Of a stretch of DNA of 64,000 nt, positions 4,059 to 58,218 are shown piece by piece (position 1 is the first letter of the stretch; each line of letters opens with the position of its first letter). Position numbers and translations under genes: made by a program. Source of the DNA: a virus (lineage: Duplodnaviria; Caudoviricetes); IMG/VR virus record IMGVR_UViG_3300028591_000073, positions 192,001 through 256,000 of that record. One strand, written 5' to 3'. Under the pieces are notes generated by a model. The model was not told the origin of the DNA. It saw only the letters and a program-made list of their open reading frames with translations, and did no database searches.

Positions 4059-4843
4059 AAATAGAAATGAGTATAAATGGTGGTGCTTTCGTGGAATTAA
4101 CATTGGATGATTTCCTGAATGCAAAACTAGAAACAGGCACCCCAGAGATTAGATTTGTTAGAAACGATACACATGTTGGATGTCATAAATATCCAAGTGT
4201 TGCAGTGACCGCAATCATCGATTGTATACCGAGACAACGTCCTATATTCAGTATTTACCATCATCTTCTTGATTACGATGCCGATTACTCAGTATATCAA
4301 CTCACAAGATTTGATTTATCAATCCATCATATCAATAATCCAAAATATGATATAGAGGTTCAGATGGAAAGACAGGCTTTAGCTGATATTGAGATTTTCA
4401 ATGATACCAATTTATTGGATACAATGATTTATCCAATCTTAGATATAGTAAATCAAATCATTAATTTCAATTGGATGGTACTTGAAAACTATCGGCTTGG
4501 TTTCTCTGATATGTTCAACATTTTCAAAGCAATTCTGATTGGAATCGCAAAGAATCCAAATCTAGCCAGTCAGATTGAGAATATGTTGATTGCATTGTCA
4601 TTGGAACCAAAGGAGAAATATTTACAAGAGAAATATGTGCGGTTATGCATTGCCATTTGTGAAACAATTCATACATCGACACAAGAGTATGAGATTTACA
4701 AATGCATCTCAACTTCCATGAGAGCAAAACTCATTGAGCATTTCCTCAATGAAAATAAACCGGATATCGTGGCACAATTGATACACTTCTCTAATCCGGT
4801 TAAAATTGAAGACATTCCCAATGATGACAGATGGAGTTTATAA
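4055..4843 (+). CDS. paralogous family protein 3 (divergent)
   Basis: ATGA overlap with previous gene; C-terminus MRAKLIEHF...IVAQLIHF...RWSL. Confidence 0.75.
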   Translation: MKIEMSINGGAFVELTLDDFLNAKLETGTPEIRFVRNDTHVGCHKYPSVAVTAIIDCIPRQRPIFSIYHHLLDYDADYSVYQLTRFDLSIHHINNPKYDIEVQMERQALADIEIFNDTNLLDTMIYPILDIVNQIINFNWMVLENYRLGFSDMFNIFKAILIGIAKNPNLASQIENMLIALSLEPKEKYLQEKYVRLCIAICETIHTSTQEYEIYKCISTSMRAKLIEHFLNENKPDIVAQLIHFSNPVKIEDIPNDDRWSL

Positions 4844-22978: not shown

Positions 22979-23004
22979 TTGAAATATATATAATTAATAT
23001 GATA
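22979..23004 (+). promoter_or_regulatory. putative early promoter motif, copy 5
   Basis: TTGAAATATATATAATTAATATGATA preceded by TTCTATTATT. Confidence 0.7.
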
Positions 23005-23217
23005 TCAATGAATATCAAATTCATTTGTTAGTAGATCTAATGCGAAGGGATCGAAAGCAATTGAGGATGATGGAGATATCGGATGAAGCTTACATCCTAA
23101 AAGAAAGCGATCCTTCTCATACCAGCCGAGAAGTAAAATAACGCTGGAGTCACTGGCAACAATACAAAGTGGGACGTCCGAGGATTAGTGAACCTCGCCC
23201 ACAAAGGAGAAATTCTT

Positions 23218-23469
23218 ATGACATTATTCACACTGATTGACAGATTATCCGATAATGACATCTTCGCAATGCCTTTCGATAGCTACACAATCACCCTAGT
23301 CAAGTACAATCACAAAGAAACTGCCGATTACCTCCCAGGCATGGTCTCCATAGGTCAGGTGGAGTACGACCATATCGATGATGCGGTAACCAATCCGCAC
23401 ATCGATATGGACAACGATACCCTCACAGACGCCGACAAGGCTTTGTTGAAGGAGGTGTTCAATCTCTGA
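23218..23469 (+). CDS. small acidic hypothetical protein
   Basis: RBS AAAGGAG before ATG 23218. Confidence 0.65.
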   Translation: MTLFTLIDRLSDNDIFAMPFDSYTITLVKYNHKETADYLPGMVSIGQVEYDHIDDAVTNPHIDMDNDTLTDADKALLKEVFNL

Positions 23470-23474
23470 TCAAT

Positions 23475-23501
23475 CAACCTGAGTAGGTTGTAAAACTACT
23501 C
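23475..23501 (+). ncRNA. H-type pseudoknot motif, single copy
   Basis: CAAC-CT-GAGTA-G-GTTG-TAAAAC-TACTC. Confidence 0.65.
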
Positions 23502-23632
23502 AAAGAAAGGATCACTGTGTAGGTGAACCCTCAGCAATAGTTGAGGCCGCCGATAGCTGATCCGACATCCATACTCGGACTGTCGTGAGACAGCCCTTCC
23601 CGTGTAAATCATCTTAGAAAGGAGGTGATTAC

Positions 23633-23851
23633 ATGAAAAAGAATTTCGTTCTTGGTTCCAGTCTTGATTCAGTTGAAGACGATGTGCTCGGGTTCGCCCG
23701 CAGACACAATCTGACAATTGAAGACAGACGTGAATATGACGAAGAGGGCAGACAGGAATTTGAATGTGACAGATTCATCCCGTCATACCTCAACGTCAAA
23801 TTCATGGATAGAAAGGGAGTCAAAGTCAACGTAACATTTGTTTACGAATGA
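23633..23851 (+). CDS. small hypothetical protein
   Basis: RBS GAAAGGAGGTG; 72 aa. Confidence 0.7.
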   Translation: MKKNFVLGSSLDSVEDDVLGFARRHNLTIEDRREYDEEGRQEFECDRFIPSYLNVKFMDRKGVKVNVTFVYE

Positions 23852-23917: not shown

Positions 23918-24081
23918 ACAGCCTAGGCATGCTGTTATAAAAACCGCCCACCAAATTGAGGTCCTCGGCATGACCGTCATTAGAAAAGAACTGCCGGTGT
24001 CCTGAGTATGACACCTAGCCAAAAAAGAACTGCTCACAATCCAGGTCCTGAATATGACCTGGATAACAAAAAGAACTATTC
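23918..24081 (+). ncRNA. tandem array of four H-type pseudoknot units
   Basis: Units at 23918, 23960, 23996 and 24039, each S1-CT-S2-N-S1'-A-rich-AAC-S2', with compensatory changes (CGGCA/TGCCG, GAGTA/TGCTC, GAATA/TATTC). Confidence 0.75.
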
Positions 24082-24082
24082 A

Positions 24083-24112
24083 AAAGGAGATCCAAGATCT
24101 CTTTTTTCTTTT
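24083..24112 (+). terminator. intrinsic terminator closing the pseudoknot array
   Basis: AAAGGAGATC-CAA-GATCTCTTT followed by a long T-run. Confidence 0.7.
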
Positions 24113-51443: not shown

Positions 51444-53834
51444 GTGATGAGAATGCCAGAAGTCAATCAAGATTTATTGATCGGATTGGTCAATGATGTA
51501 TTGGGTAAAGATGAAATCGAAGCTCGTAAAGATGAAATCGAAGATACCATTACTGGAATATTGAAATCTTATAATTTGTCAACAGATTTGTCATTTGTGG
51601 AAAAGATGGCAAAATTGAAGTTCCATACAAACAAGGGAGAAGAAGTTGATATTGAAGAACTTCCGTCAGAATTGAAAGATGCTGCATTCTTACCGGTAAA
51701 TACAATTGCGGATATTGCATTACGTCAAGATCTGGATATGATCATATCACAACTGCCAGAATGGTATAACGCCATTCAAGTTACCAGAGATGCAGTATGT
51801 GAAGCAGATACCGTTGATGGTAAATTATCACGTGTGATTCAATTTGATCGTGTGGCATTAAATGATCAACAGAAAGCTTCTAATATTGCAAAAATAGAAG
51901 AAGTAGAAGATCGAATGGAATTAAATCATATTATCAAAAATCATATTGTGTTTAACACATTGCTGTATGGGGAGTCCTATGTATACACAATTCCGTATGC
52001 AAAAGTATTCTCTGACTTATATCAATTCCGTTTAAATGATGAAAATAAACGTAAATCATCATCCGTATCTAACATGTTTGAAATATCATCTACCATGAAA
52101 GGATATGGATATGGAGAACAAACCATTGAGGTTTCTTTGAGTGATACCATCATCCAGGAATCCAACAAGTATAAAAATAAGAACAATACTGTCTTCACAG
52201 AACAAGAAATCATGGATATCAATCCTATGTATCATGGTCATACATTTCATGAAGATGGAACAGAGGATAAGAAATCACAAAAGGAATATGATGAACAATA
52301 TGAAGCACAATTAAAAGAAATTGCAGATAATATTTCTTATATTGAACAAGATATTGCATTACCTGTGATTGAACAATCTGCTCATGATTTAAAAGCGGTG
52401 TATGAAGCAAAATATCGTGAAACAAAGAATGACACCGATGTGAAAGCATTCTTTGAAGAAGTGGTAGAAGATGGGATGAAATCAGAACCAACCACATTTG
52501 ACAAACATTTTTCCCGTATCAAAGGATGTTACATTCGTATCTTACCAGCAACGAAATTGATTCCAATTCGTATTGATAGAACTGTGATCGGATATTACTA
52601 TGTGTCTGACCAGACTCGTACGGAAAAGAGTGGTGAAAGACGTAATTCTGGATTGAGTGGTTATACATTAAGAACACCATCGATTGGCTATGATACATTC
52701 TCTCCGGACCAGATGTTCTGTGAGAAATTGGCAACTAAAATCATCAATAACTTTGATTTGAAATTCATGCGTGATAATACGGCATTACATGAACAAATCG
52801 TTGCGATTCTGCAATCTCACAAATTTAATGAAGCGATGTTACGTTTCATTTATATTCCAGCAGAACATGTTTCACAGTTTACCATTAACAAAGATGGTAT
52901 GGGATGTGGACATTCCATGATGGAACCTGGATTGATTGCGGCAAGAATGTACATGTTCTTGAAACTGTACACTGTGCTGTATCAGATTAACAATTCACAG
53001 ATTCGTGTTTATAATTTGAGAATGAGTGGTATCGATAAGAATTATCGTCAATTAGTACAAGAAACCATTCGTAAGTTTGCCGCTCGTAGAATCACAGCCA
53101 ATGATATTTTCAATTATCGTTCTTCCATGACAAAGGTAAGTGGTGGTTCAGAATTGATTATGCCAATGGGTGCATCGGGTGAAGCACCAATCCAAGTATC
53201 ATCTATCGATGCTGCAGACTCACCCATTTCATCCGACTTAATGGAACAATTGAAAGCAGAAGCTATTAACTCCACTCCAGTACCAGCTTTGTTATTGACA
53301 AATGGTGCTGTATCGGAGATTGAATTTGCAAAGGAAACAGAATTGGCAAATACCAAATTCAATTCTTTTGTCTCAGGTGTTAAGATTGAATTGAATCATG
53401 ATACTACAAAATTCTATCGTAAGATACTGAAATGGGAAACTGATATTGAACCAGAGTTATTAAAAGATATGACATTCTCCTTCCATATGTCAACATCCAA
53501 AACATTGAATGTGACATCGGAAAAGATTTCCACATTTGATGCTGTATGGCAACTTGTCATGAAAACCTTTTTAACAAAGGAAGAAAGACAAGAAGGAGAT
53601 GGAGAAGAAGGAGACACACCAGTTGCACGTGCTTTAAAGAAGAAAATGATTCAAAAGTATCTTCCAGAAATTGATGTGGAAGACTTTGAGAATATGGCAA
53701 AAGAAGCACGTGATGAAGCAAACCAGAATAAATTAAACGAAGTGGATCCAAATAAGAATCTCTTGGATAGTTCTGTTCCCGATGCAGGAGATGCCGGCGG
53801 TGGAGTAGATGATATGAATGGAGGTATGTTCTAA
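51444..53834 (+). CDS. portal protein (jumbo-phage type)
   Basis: 796 aa; TLLYGESYV, LIPIRI...IGYYY, INSTPVP...EFAK segments; acidic Gly-rich tail. Confidence 0.7.
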   Translation: MMRMPEVNQDLLIGLVNDVLGKDEIEARKDEIEDTITGILKSYNLSTDLSFVEKMAKLKFHTNKGEEVDIEELPSELKDAAFLPVNTIADIALRQDLDMIISQLPEWYNAIQVTRDAVCEADTVDGKLSRVIQFDRVALNDQQKASNIAKIEEVEDRMELNHIIKNHIVFNTLLYGESYVYTIPYAKVFSDLYQFRLNDENKRKSSSVSNMFEISSTMKGYGYGEQTIEVSLSDTIIQESNKYKNKNNTVFTEQEIMDINPMYHGHTFHEDGTEDKKSQKEYDEQYEAQLKEIADNISYIEQDIALPVIEQSAHDLKAVYEAKYRETKNDTDVKAFFEEVVEDGMKSEPTTFDKHFSRIKGCYIRILPATKLIPIRIDRTVIGYYYVSDQTRTEKSGERRNSGLSGYTLRTPSIGYDTFSPDQMFCEKLATKIINNFDLKFMRDNTALHEQIVAILQSHKFNEAMLRFIYIPAEHVSQFTINKDGMGCGHSMMEPGLIAARMYMFLKLYTVLYQINNSQIRVYNLRMSGIDKNYRQLVQETIRKFAARRITANDIFNYRSSMTKVSGGSELIMPMGASGEAPIQVSSIDAADSPISSDLMEQLKAEAINSTPVPALLLTNGAVSEIEFAKETELANTKFNSFVSGVKIELNHDTTKFYRKILKWETDIEPELLKDMTFSFHMSTSKTLNVTSEKISTFDAVWQLVMKTFLTKEERQEGDGEEGDTPVARALKKKMIQKYLPEIDVEDFENMAKEARDEANQNKLNEVDPNKNLLDSSVPDAGDAGGGVDDMNGGMF

Positions 53835-55590: not shown

Positions 55591-55610
55591 GAGGGCCCAT
55601 ATGGGCCCTC
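55591..55610. terminator. CATATG-centred palindrome terminator
   Basis: GAGGGCCCATATGGGCCCTC + T-rich tail. Confidence 0.7.
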
Positions 55611-56410: not shown

Positions 56411-56544
56411 AAGAGATGAGTCCTCCTGACTAAATATATTGAGTACCACGCGGGCATTGGTACTCTCGCTTTTTTGGATAGATATGGAACATTACAATTG
56501 TGGGGCCATATGGCCCCACATTATATTTTCTATTATTTTATTTT

Positions 56545-56570
56545 TTCATATAGATATCATTAATATGATA
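56545..56570 (+). promoter_or_regulatory. putative early promoter motif, copy 8
   Basis: TTCATATAGATATCATTAATATGATA, identical to copy 4. Confidence 0.7.
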
Positions 56571-56627
56571 TAGAGAAATCTATATTATGCATCCGGCAAG
56601 ATGTCATCAGTAATCTTTTGAAAGGAG

Positions 56628-56906
56628 GTGAATGGTATGACACAAGACTGGAATTGTCATCTCACCGTCATCGATAACGATGACCTCAGTGACATTGAGG
56701 TTACCATCGTTGCTGATGGTGAGAATGTTGATTCCGTACTGAAAGCAGCTGCGAAAGCAGTTGCTGATGTATGGGATTGTGCAGATTGCGATATTGTGGG
56801 AACACATATCGTACTGCACACCGGTAACCTGTGTGGTGATGTTGAGTACAAACTCAACAGCATCACCCCCAGAACCGGTGGTCCTTGTGTGATTAAGTTC
56901 GCATAA
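56628..56906 (+). CDS. small acidic hypothetical protein
   Basis: RBS AAAGGAGGTG (true start may be ATG 56637). Confidence 0.7.
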   Translation: MNGMTQDWNCHLTVIDNDDLSDIEVTIVADGENVDSVLKAAAKAVADVWDCADCDIVGTHIVLHTGNLCGDVEYKLNSITPRTGGPCVIKFA

Positions 56907-56913
56907 GGACCGG

Positions 56914-56944
56914 ACAGCCTGAGCATGCTGTATAAAAACTGCTC
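56914..56944 (+). ncRNA. H-type pseudoknot motif, single copy
   Basis: ACAGC-CT-GAGCA-T-GCTGT-ATAAAAAC-TGCTC. Confidence 0.7.
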
Positions 56945-57028
56945 ATTTCTTTTATAAAAAATCTGACATATCATGTCATAAGAACCCAATAGGTCGATAT
57001 GTTCAGATTCTAAAAAGGAGGTAATCTT

Positions 57029-57562
57029 ATGACACATGAACAATATGAATTTATTCAAGGACTTCAACAGGATATTCTGAAACGGGTTGCTTATGCAAAC
57101 CCGGCATGCGTCCTCAGTCAGTCTGAACTTGCCATTCTGTATCACGGCGGCGAGTTCGATGAAATTCATCAAGCCGAAATCGGATTTTCCAATGATGATG
57201 AAACTGGAATAAAAACCATTATCATCAACAGATATGTGAATGACAAACTGGTTTTTCACCAGTTCATTGTCATTGAGAATCCAAATCCAGATGAGGAAAC
57301 ACCATATGGCGTCACAACAGTGAACACCGATTTCAACGGTGATGCTGACTGTGATATCATAGCTGTTCTGTACAGTCACATCCCAGGTATGTCCTGGCGA
57401 AGAGTGGAAGACAGAACTGTCACCTTGTGCGACAAACTGGACAATGTTATTCGTCAGGCGCAACAGCCCAGCTTCGAGGAGTTTATCCACAGAATCATTG
57501 ATGAGAGACTCGCGGAAGGTCCTGGGAATTGGGACGATGATGGCGAAGACAAGGATGCATAA
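57029..57562 (+). CDS. acidic hypothetical protein
   Basis: RBS AAGGAGG; 177 aa. Confidence 0.75.
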   Translation: MTHEQYEFIQGLQQDILKRVAYANPACVLSQSELAILYHGGEFDEIHQAEIGFSNDDETGIKTIIINRYVNDKLVFHQFIVIENPNPDEETPYGVTTVNTDFNGDADCDIIAVLYSHIPGMSWRRVEDRTVTLCDKLDNVIRQAQQPSFEEFIHRIIDERLAEGPGNWDDDGEDKDA

Positions 57563-57582
57563 TCTAATTCTGAGTCATCAAT

Positions 57583-57610
57583 ATGACCTGAGTAAGTCAT
57601 TAAACTGCTC
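57583..57610 (+). ncRNA. H-type pseudoknot motif, single copy
   Basis: ATGAC-CT-GAGTA-A-GTCAT-TAAAC-TGCTC. Confidence 0.7.
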
Positions 57611-57675
57611 ATCGTTATATAAGACCAGCTCATGTCTTAAGAAACCGAGCGTACATTCCAAAGGAGGAACTATTT

Positions 57676-58218
57676 ATGGCAAAAATAATCAATGAAGACA
57701 ACCTCAGTGCAGGTGTAACACAGTACGATGGCAACCGTGTTGATGTTATGGCAGAAGTTGCCAAACAGCAGTATCGCACTGCTTCTGATGAATTGCATAA
57801 AGCAATTTATGCAATGGAGATGTTCAACATCTTCATGGAGCAGCAGATGCATGCCGGCCTCGATGTATTTGATGGCGGAAGCCATTGTACATTAAAAGGT
57901 GGGTATGATGGTCCCTGGTACTTCGACCCCACCAGACCAGAGACAGTACGTCTCTCCACACAGGGTGGTGAAGGACCGGATGTGACAATATCCGAACTCA
58001 AGTGCTTTTCCGCACACTGGGCTTACAAAACGAGCGGAGGGGAAGCAATCATCTGGCTTACGGCATATCCAGATGAGGATTTCCCGGACCACATCATCTT
58101 CGAAATCGAAGAGGAATTCGAAGATGAATATGGTGAACCGAATCACTTCGGAACCAGTGACTCTGATATGTTCCATAACGGAACATTTGACCCGTCGAAG
58201 GTCTCCGGCATCATCTGA
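57676..58218 (+). CDS. acidic hypothetical protein
   Basis: RBS AAGGAGG; 180 aa. Confidence 0.75.
   Translation: MAKIINEDNLSAGVTQYDGNRVDVMAEVAKQQYRTASDELHKAIYAMEMFNIFMEQQMHAGLDVFDGGSHCTLKGGYDGPWYFDPTRPETVRLSTQGGEGPDVTISELKCFSAHWAYKTSGGEAIIWLTAYPDEDFPDHIIFEIEEEFEDEYGEPNHFGTSDSDMFHNGTFDPSKVSGII

Follow-up and report, generated by a model that had tools for sequence, protein, structure and literature searches.

The window analysed here is a stretch of 64,000 nucleotides from the 294,548-bp genome of a jumbo phage. The genes for its multisubunit RNA polymerase are split, and the beta subunit is only ~29% identical to that of Bacillus phage AR9. Two gene islands of the window concern us, each headed by an early-type promoter motif, and in both of them a small RNA pseudoknot lies shortly after the stop codon of an open reading frame (ORF). 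The first island holds ORF 23218-23469 and ends in a tandem array of further elements. The second holds ORFs 56637-56906 and 57029-57562, followed by ORF 57676-58218, with a pseudoknot and a further RNA structure in each of the two intercistronic gaps (Table 1). For eight neighbouring island proteins, PADLOC returned nothing and neither Pfam nor PHROG gave a significant match, and megablast and blastn searches of the islands against phage records returned no match.

Table 1 Positions of the RNA elements and associated signals in the window.
Feature	Position	Strand	Basis and remarks
Early-type promoter motif core, first island	22993..23005	+	Genome motif scan; sequence
Pseudoknot copy 1	23475..23502	+	Canonical 28-29-nt form; sequence, strict descriptor match and family alignment (A1, row 1)
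Tandem array of four family members, then an intrinsic-terminator-like hairpin	23919..24106	+	Sequence, descriptor and terminator scan
Terminator-like palindrome ahead of the second-island promoter	56499-56520		
Early-type promoter motif core, second island	56559..56571	+	Genome motif scan
Pseudoknot copy 2	56914..56945	+	Loop 3 exceeds the canonical form by 3 nt; sequence and descriptor; kept in the orthologous contig L241
A/U-rich linker, probably single-stranded	56946..56960	+	Sequence; identical in L241; candidate endonuclease site (cleavage predicted only)
12-bp hairpin with one bulge (56961-56972 with 56996-57008)	56961..57008	+	Minimum-energy fold
Pseudoknot copy 3	57583..57611	+	Canonical 29-nt form; sequence and descriptor; family alignment (A1, row 2)
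SD-proximal pseudoknot	57620..57651	+	Same template: 6-bp stem 1, loop 1 = C, four central stem-2 pairs

The three stop-side copies, which we denote by their first positions 23475, 56914 and 57583, share a single layout. Read from 5' to 3', a stem 1 of 4-5 bp is followed by a loop 1 made of a single C, the 6-nt 5' strand of stem 2, one junction nucleotide, the 3' strand of stem 1, an A-rich loop 3 with a terminal AAC and finally the 6-nt 3' strand of stem 2. This last strand pairs with the hairpin loop and so completes a classic H-type pseudoknot, with stem 2 paired at 6/6 positions in each copy. Together, the 3' strand of stem 1 and loop 3 measure 10 nt in copies 23475 and 57583, 13 nt in copy 56914 and 12 nt in the related element at 57620. 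The initial annotation had described these three copies as lying 5-20 nt past stop codons and always in sense orientation. We verified the coordinates and the strand (sense in 3/3) and measured, with stem 1 taken at full length throughout, gaps of 5 nt to the stop codon of ORF 23218-23469, 7 nt to that of ORF 56637-56906 and 20 nt to that of ORF 57029-57562.

The genome was scanned with a strict descriptor that demanded a C as loop 1, a hairpin loop of 8 nt, four or more base pairs in stem 1, AAC at the end of loop 3 and all six stem-2 pairs. Across the whole genome there were six matches, all on the plus strand and all within the two islands of this window, whereas 40 Markov shuffles averaged 0.55 matches and never gave more than 3. 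Three of the six belong to the tandem array, whose four elements (23919-24082) close the operon that carries copy 23475; the fourth of them has a degenerate stem 2 and is not matched by the strict descriptor. Our first IUPAC pattern for the element was too narrow, and loose structural descriptors were noisy (89 matches versus ~57 in shuffles), so that they were used solely with added constraints. Nested folding is unable to score pseudoknots, and the weak z-scores of single copies are uninformative either way; the nested-fold energies of single copies were modest, at about -5 to -8 kcal/mol per helix.

Both intercistronic gaps of the second island are built in the same order: the stop codon is followed by the knot, then by a short A/U-rich linker, a second stable structure and the ribosome-binding site. 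For these second structures, the initial annotation had proposed a second pseudoknot type, of which only part could be upheld. The pseudoknot at 57620-57651, which ends 6 nt upstream of the Shine-Dalgarno (SD) sequence of ORF 57676-58218, is real, but it is the same fold with another stem 2 and not a distinct type. The pairs put forward for a pseudoknot at 56964-57000 are likewise present, but the minimum-energy fold places the same bases into the 12-bp hairpin that includes them, so that the two are alternative folds. The 3' end of this hairpin lies ~6 nt upstream of the SD of ORF 57029-57562. Its 5' half resembles the element at 57620-57651 and, judging from this resemblance, the hairpin may be a derived copy of a 57620-type element.

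In the whole genome the SD-proximal form is present in four near-identical copies, at genome positions 4783, 53125 (minus strand) and 103484 and at 57620 of the window, and in 4/4 an SD follows the end of the element at a distance of 5-14 nt. An early promoter lies ~20 nt ahead of the copy at 53125, which has no upstream ORF. From this copy and the 5-14 nt spacing we conclude that the SD-proximal form is tied to the next ribosome-binding site and not to a stop codon. The copy at 4783 is one of a pair (genome 4745/4783) that also includes a stop-type copy and lies in a 5' leader without an upstream ORF. No canonical early promoter was found within about 2 kb of the copy at 103484. The earlier statement that the elements occur only in islands headed by the early promoter motif therefore holds within the window, but genome-wide this SD-proximal copy departs from it.

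Orthologous loci gave a first view of how the elements are maintained. Searches for the 177-aa protein encoded by ORF 57029-57562 found no relative in IMG/VR and one in metagenomes, on contig L241, at 75% amino-acid identity. The gap ahead of this ORF (56907-57028, linker included) is identical at 118/122 nt in L241 (96.7%), whereas the flanking ORF DNA is only 79.3% identical, a difference that further supports a cis-acting role. Three of the four changes in the gap fall in the apical region of the hairpin and leave both of its stem strands unchanged; the fourth removes the outermost stem-1 pair of copy 56914. In the next gap, the element at 57620-57651 has undergone a compensatory change from A-U to U-A in stem 1, and stem 1 of copy 57583 still pairs in L241, via G-U. 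The IMG/VR contig L001 carries the same pair of elements ahead of another gene.

Beyond this phage, the three copies belong to a widespread phage RNA family of 27-32-nt H-type pseudoknots, which is carried by hundreds of unrelated phages just past stop codons. A pattern that fixed only the stem-2 strands and the AAC gave at least 139 matches in viral contigs. Among the matches listed, 76 have the minimal 25-nt spacing, where chance would give an even spread over gap lengths, 96 have a paired stem 1 of varied sequence, and 16/139 are longer forms with two additional nucleotides. An 18-base pattern was found in at least 119 contigs of species-representative genomes compared with about 17 expected by chance (an estimate), and stem 1 was paired in 109/122 of those species-representative matches listed.

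The fold was further examined by covariation over 146 aligned copies. Pairing was seen in 94.4% of cells, versus 82.0% in shuffled alignments and 23-36% when the partners were slid, and the covariation score was 0.318 versus 0.098 after shuffling (0/500 shuffles reached the observed value) and 0.03-0.10 with slid partners. The inner two variable pairs of stem 1 were represented by four to six standard pair types. Because stem 2 was fixed by the search pattern, its covariation was checked in the same contigs with a stem-2-free descriptor, which recovered eight convincing variants in which changes on one strand are matched on the other; in shuffles there were 0-3 matches of any kind. A variant stem 2 with matching changes is also present in the array of this window. 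Both helices are thus supported, stem 1 by covariation in the alignment and stem 2 by the eight variants. The alignment also contains G-U pairs on the sense strand, which points to an element that acts as RNA rather than DNA. Loop 1 is invariably C.

Many bacterial contigs carry the family, and its phage carriers include small siphoviruses, podoviruses and crAss-like phages. Among cultured phages we found it in Staphylococcus phage StB12, Lactobacillus phages KC5a, Lj771 and phig1e, the Bacillus megaterium Page group, the Arthrobacter Amigo group, roseophage SIO1, a Cylindrospermopsis phage and crAss-like phages. It was unannotated in all cultured phage records inspected, which marks a gap in genome annotation. 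The titles of the species-representative records with matches name Saccharibacteria, Anaerolineae, Actinomycetes, Firmicutes, Bacteroidota, Cyanobacteria and several proteobacterial classes. A match in a Vibrio phage lay antisense within a coding sequence and was set aside as probably due to chance. No match was found in 5,426 E. coli genomes, a database of a size at which only copies with a near-identical stem 1 are detectable. Rfam 15 holds no model for the family, and the published literature that we searched gave no description of the motif in phages or bacteria, although absence there is not proof.

This distribution bears on the put/nut-like role raised in the initial annotation, in which the RNA would modify the phage RNA polymerase. 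On this reading the multisubunit enzyme of the phage would be enabled to pass terminators. The polymerase subunits are indeed phage-encoded, and the operons with copies are headed by the phage early promoter motif. However, small phages and bacterial contigs without such a polymerase commonly carry the same element; it follows stop codons and not promoters, and no terminator lies between the copies and the next gene. We therefore regard a put/nut-like role as extremely improbable.

Is the element instead a small-molecule aptamer? The preQ1-I riboswitch is an H-type pseudoknot of roughly 34 nt with an A-rich tail, and so resembles the phage element, with its A-rich loop 3, in size and architecture. 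At gathering cut-offs, Rfam searches returned a group I intron only, and at E-values up to 10 the two islands gave noise only, with no covariance-model match to preQ1-I (RF00522) or to any other family. Loops 1 and 2 are one nucleotide each and leave no room for a binding pocket, the SD lies outside the element and hence outside stem 2, and the gene contexts point to no single pathway. An aptamer thus seems scarcely credible. Pistol-ribozyme and riboswitch readings, like those of stop-codon read-through and frameshifting, were ruled out on sequence.

The position of the family relative to genes is distinctive. Among the matches listed, 0/96 copies lie within sense ORFs, compared with 17/43 of chance pattern matches. 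The number of nucleotides between the stop codon and loop 1 has an abrupt onset at 9, with 26 copies at 9, 20 at 10, 11 at 11 and 9 at 12, and only 5/182 copies are closer than 9. An antisense control for the stop-codon distance was flat and had no peak. The distance to the next start codon is far looser than that to the upstream stop codon. Copies are always sense and outside ORFs, and their distance from the upstream stop codon is sharply limited, here as in some 190 copies of other origin. A cis-acting role, which the initial annotation had thought as plausible as a decoy acting in trans, is thus well supported.

For the trans decoy we found no support, and no toxin-like or defence-like gene adjoins the elements. 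In its broader form, this explanation holds that the knot is a protein-binding module. It could serve as operator to some conserved RNA-binding protein, or act as a decoy such as a type III antitoxin directed against a ToxN-like host nuclease. The sequence of stem 2 and loop 1 is strongly conserved across unrelated phages, and four copies are arrayed within the same operon. According to textbook knowledge, type III antitoxin RNAs (ToxI and relatives) are likewise small pseudoknots, of about 34-36 nt, with A-rich single strands, and may stand in tandem ahead of a terminator. Their repeats are near-identical, however, and are cut and bound by an adjacent toxin endoribonuclease, whereas the phage copies are dispersed and differ in both stems, and no ToxN-like gene was present among the eight neighbouring proteins (PADLOC, Pfam, PHROG); the type III antitoxin was accordingly rejected as a candidate. 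Anchoring to a stop codon would be purposeless in a decoy, and no protein family is common to all contexts. A protein-binding module is, in our estimate, very unlikely.

From the minimum of 9 nt to loop 1 it follows that stem 1, with its 3-bp core, starts at least 6 nt past the stop codon. A spacer of 6 nt is the spacing at which frameshift pseudoknots sit at the mRNA entrance of the ribosome. Taken with the ribosome footprint, the limit means that, with the stop codon in the A site, the mRNA entrance is where the knot lies. By analogy with frameshift pseudoknots, the knot would stay folded beside the terminating ribosome, as close to it as is possible without being unwound, and the sharp 6-nt limit past stop codons would then be a natural read-out of the ribosome mRNA entrance. 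Tight spacing could reflect only genome compaction together with avoidance of unwinding by the ribosome, which would fit any folded-RNA function and speaks to this extent against the capping of cistron ends considered below.

These data invite comparison with the frameshift pseudoknots of luteoviruses (BWYV, PLRV). The fold is similarly compact and H-type, the loop-1 C could form a base triple in the stem-2 groove, loop 3, which is A-rich and has AAAC at its end, could lie along the minor groove of stem 1, and the spacing from the A-site codon is 5-8 nt. In contrast to BWYV and PLRV, the A-site codon is a stop codon and not part of a slippery heptamer, no extended frame follows, and stem 2 is longer. 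With a stop codon at the slippery site and no X XXY YYZ motif, a -1 frameshift stimulator was discarded as a candidate.

The ribosome itself could nevertheless be the target. A knot at the mRNA entrance of a ribosome halted at the stop codon might block post-termination sliding and re-initiation, and so uncouple the cistrons, or it might tune termination. This is consistent with the hard 6-nt minimum between stop codon and stem-1 core, which has its mode at the limit and matches the spacing of frameshift pseudoknots, and the spread of the family over many phyla fits a universal target. The coremin motif of RNA viruses, moreover, blocks scanning ribosomes and stimulates frameshifting. Not all copies comply: those in leaders have no upstream ORF, and the four-copy array is far from any stop codon. 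No slippery heptamer precedes any of the three copies, and in-frame read-through would append only 7-16 codons. TAA, the tightest stop codon, predominates among the stop codons of the viral set, a further point against the ribosome as target. Overall, we consider the ribosome quite unlikely to be the main target.

The closest published analogue is the coremin motif (xrRNA-C), known from BNYVV, cucumoviruses and other RNA viruses, together with its Watson-Crick form xrRNA-WCC, both described by Dilweg, Gultyaev and Olsthoorn (PMC6546385, PMC10520033, PMC10321173). Coremin motifs stall the exoribonuclease Xrn1 as well as scanning ribosomes (PMC10520033, PMC10321173). In common with coremin, the phage element is very small, has a first stem of 3-4 bp and a pyrimidine (C) as first loop base, forms its H-type pseudoknot through a loop-to-spacer interaction and, in its canonical form, places 10 nt between the start of the stem-1 3' strand and stem 2. 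Of the conserved 10-nt coremin spacer, which ends in CUAC, the phage element has the AAAC-U-purine-C part, exactly so in copy 23475, and differs in the remainder. The Xrn1-resistant coremin heptaloop CGAGUAA and the loop at 57588-57595 are one inserted U apart, and one natural Watson-Crick coremin example lies 8 nt past an ORF.

There are also differences. The phage loop has 8 nt (C, a six-nt strand that pairs downstream and one further nucleotide) and forms six Watson-Crick pairs, and it does not follow the YGAD/YGNNAD rule of coremin. Compared with xrRNA-WCC, a Watson-Crick stem 2 is present, but loop 1 is always C where WCC needs G. Coremin needs a downstream hairpin for Xrn1 resistance, whereas such a hairpin is not enriched in the phage family: one starts within 15 nt downstream in 97/172 copies versus 109/172 shuffles. 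In the window, the next stems downstream of the copies begin at 6, 15 and 8 nt. The hosts of the phage element, DNA phages and bacteria, are also without Xrn1. Thus the element possibly works like coremin but is not a member of it, and common descent of the two cannot be shown, as the RNA is too short.

The coremin likeness raises the possibility of a purely 5'-to-3' barrier, the prokaryotic counterpart of coremin and other exoribonuclease-resistant RNAs (xrRNAs). Such a barrier would stop RNase J1, or else RNase E or Y in their 5'-end-dependent scanning, so that only the downstream RNA survives, be it the next cistron or, at operon ends, a stable non-coding RNA. Besides the short stem 1, the loop-1 C, the loop 3 ending in AAAC and the 10-nt distance, this explanation can draw on copies in 5' leaders directly ahead of ribosome-binding sites, on copies upstream of scaffold and capsid genes and on the ability of a flavivirus xrRNA to stop bacterial RNase J1 in vitro (PMC5760640). 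Placement is a difficulty for it. The anchor is the upstream stop codon and not the next start, some copies precede tRNA genes and up to a quarter precede convergent genes, and the second hairpin that is obligatory for coremin shows no enrichment. Furthermore, no RNase J ortholog above the curated cut-off was present in 3/5 bacterial carriers of good copies (Polynucleobacter, Segatella copri, Cellvibrionaceae), with one in the other 2/5; the carriers are mostly metagenome bins, in which host assignment is uncertain. RNase J1 is therefore unlikely to be the only target of the family, and we judge a purely 5'-to-3' barrier unlikely.

A barrier or processing role, as envisaged in the initial annotation, is plausible. 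We favour, tentatively and with somewhat less than an even chance of being right, a reading in which the elements act in cis as barriers on polycistronic messages, where they would cap the ends of cistrons and leave transcription to continue. The data establish the fold, its covariation, strand, placement and conservation, whereas a block to nucleases or ribosomes and cleavage between the two structures are inferred. The stop-anchored copies 23475, 56914 and 57583 would guard the 3' side of the translated upstream cistron, with the stop-side knot halting 3'-to-5' exonucleases and other RNA-tracking machinery. The second structures (the pseudoknot at 57620-57651 and the hairpin at 56961-57008) would guard the 5' side of the next cistron by halting 5'-to-3' decay, and may also insulate its ribosome-binding site from upstream pairing. 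The A/U-rich linker between both structures would be the likely point of cleavage. Such a two-cap arrangement, with cleavage in the linker, is suggested by the two anchors found in this genome, the stop codon for one form and the SD for the other. The closer tie is to the stop codon upstream and not to the following start, which suits a guarding of the upstream cistron no less than of the downstream cistron. A stem 1 of 3-4 bp would be too weak for an intrinsic terminator, whereas the finished knot can be mechanically strong, a combination that would suit a site within an operon.

Coremin and the flavivirus xrRNA are precedents for such barriers. Nuclease resistance cannot be assumed for every compact knot, since Xrn1 is not stalled by ordinary frameshift pseudoknots of about this size (PMC10321173). 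The modest nested-fold energies weigh against capping of cistron ends, as does the stop-type copy of the leader pair at genome 4745/4783, where there is no upstream ORF. About a quarter of the copies elsewhere may precede a convergent gene (by crude ORF calls), and a role for the downstream side is unexplained at those sites.

Structured RNAs at cistron boundaries have long been known as stabilisers, among them the RNase III sites of T7 early mRNA, the REP hairpins after malE and the 5' stabilisers of Bacillus (ermC, aprE, SP82). As in these textbook cases, the phage elements would set the stability of individual message segments from the cistron boundary. Unlike the phage family, those stabilisers are plain hairpins, have no fixed spacing from the stop codon and are specific to their lineages.

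A bolder and more doubtful extension of the capping of cistron ends is that the family represents the first prokaryotic class of nuclease- and ribosome-resistant RNA, a universal 27-nt cistron-end cap whose position is gauged by the terminating ribosome through its footprint. With such a cap, phages of many phyla, as well as some bacteria, would give each segment of an mRNA its own stability while transcription runs on, a convergent or shared solution with coremin xrRNA. If this is true, exonuclease-resistant RNAs would extend from eukaryotic RNA viruses to DNA phages and bacteria, and the 27-nt element could serve as a portable insulator or stabiliser in synthetic operons.

Finally, the genes around the copies were compared. 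By crude ORF calls for 176 copies, the next feature was a same-strand ORF within 300 nt in 111 cases and a convergent ORF in 43, with neither in the remaining 22; tRNA genes lie downstream of some copies. The upstream genes are heterogeneous, and head scaffolding proteins account for 11/75 of the downstream genes. In StB12, KC5a and Bacillus phage Page, the element has the portal or minor-head gene on one side and the genes for scaffold and major capsid protein on the other. This junction from portal to scaffold and capsid is a boundary between low and high expression, and a knot that blocks RNases or ribosomes would account for the very different outputs that phages obtain from neighbouring genes such as these on a single transcript.

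Between the first stop-codon pseudoknot in the window (copy 1) and the next open reading frame (ORF) lies a strongly structured RNA that contains a long nested hairpin. The folded segment covering it gave z = -4.09, with equal stability reached in 0 of 200 shuffles. At the end of the same operon, the first unit of the four-member tandem array has its stem 1 and loop 3 in common with the copy at window position 56914, and its stem 2 has 3-4 pairs only. The same stem-2 variant is present in contig L236, but fully paired there. Array unit 1 looks like a decaying copy.

Coordinates of the structured RNA, array unit, palindromes and leader elements
Feature	Location	Strand
Structured RNA after copy 1	window 23509-23600	
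Folded segment	window 23470-23615	
ORF after structured RNA	window 23633-23851	
Array unit 1	window 23919-23953	
Near-identical CATATG palindromes	window 55591-55610; window 56499-56520	
Further CATATG palindrome	genome 127065	
Further CATATG palindromes	genome, near 53190; genome, near 211145	minus
Leader pseudoknot region, this phage	genome 4713-4775	
Leader pseudoknot region, L001	L001:270-400	minus
Leader terminator-like hairpin, this phage	genome 4722-4742 (outside window)	
Leader terminator-like hairpin, L001	L001:372-392	

The leader pseudoknot at genome 4745 has a homologue in the related IMG/VR contig L001, interrupted after the start of its loop 3. The inserted DNA, a possible small mobile cassette, contains a palindrome and a short ORF of ~46 codons with its ribosome-binding site; upstream of the pseudoknot copy at genome 103484 there is a homolog of that ORF as well. 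In both phages a terminator-like hairpin with a U-run is found 5 nt upstream of the leader pseudoknot. Its pairing is kept though the stem sequence differs between the two, and it could act as a leader attenuator.

The near-identical G+C-rich palindromes centred on CATATG, each with a T-rich run after it, lie just upstream of early promoters. Together these look like a dispersed terminator-plus-promoter cassette.

The pseudoknot was also seen in other gene contexts. In one phage lineage (IMG/VR contigs L035, L036, L063 and L064) it lies 3' of a DUF932 gene, with a tRNA gene ~10-20 nt or less downstream; excision of the tRNA would give the upstream message a new 3' end, with the pseudoknot located there. 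Three unrelated cultured phages (Staphylococcus phage StB12, Lactobacillus phage KC5a and Bacillus phage Page) carry the element without annotation, flanked by a portal or minor-head gene on one side and by scaffold and major-capsid genes on the other.
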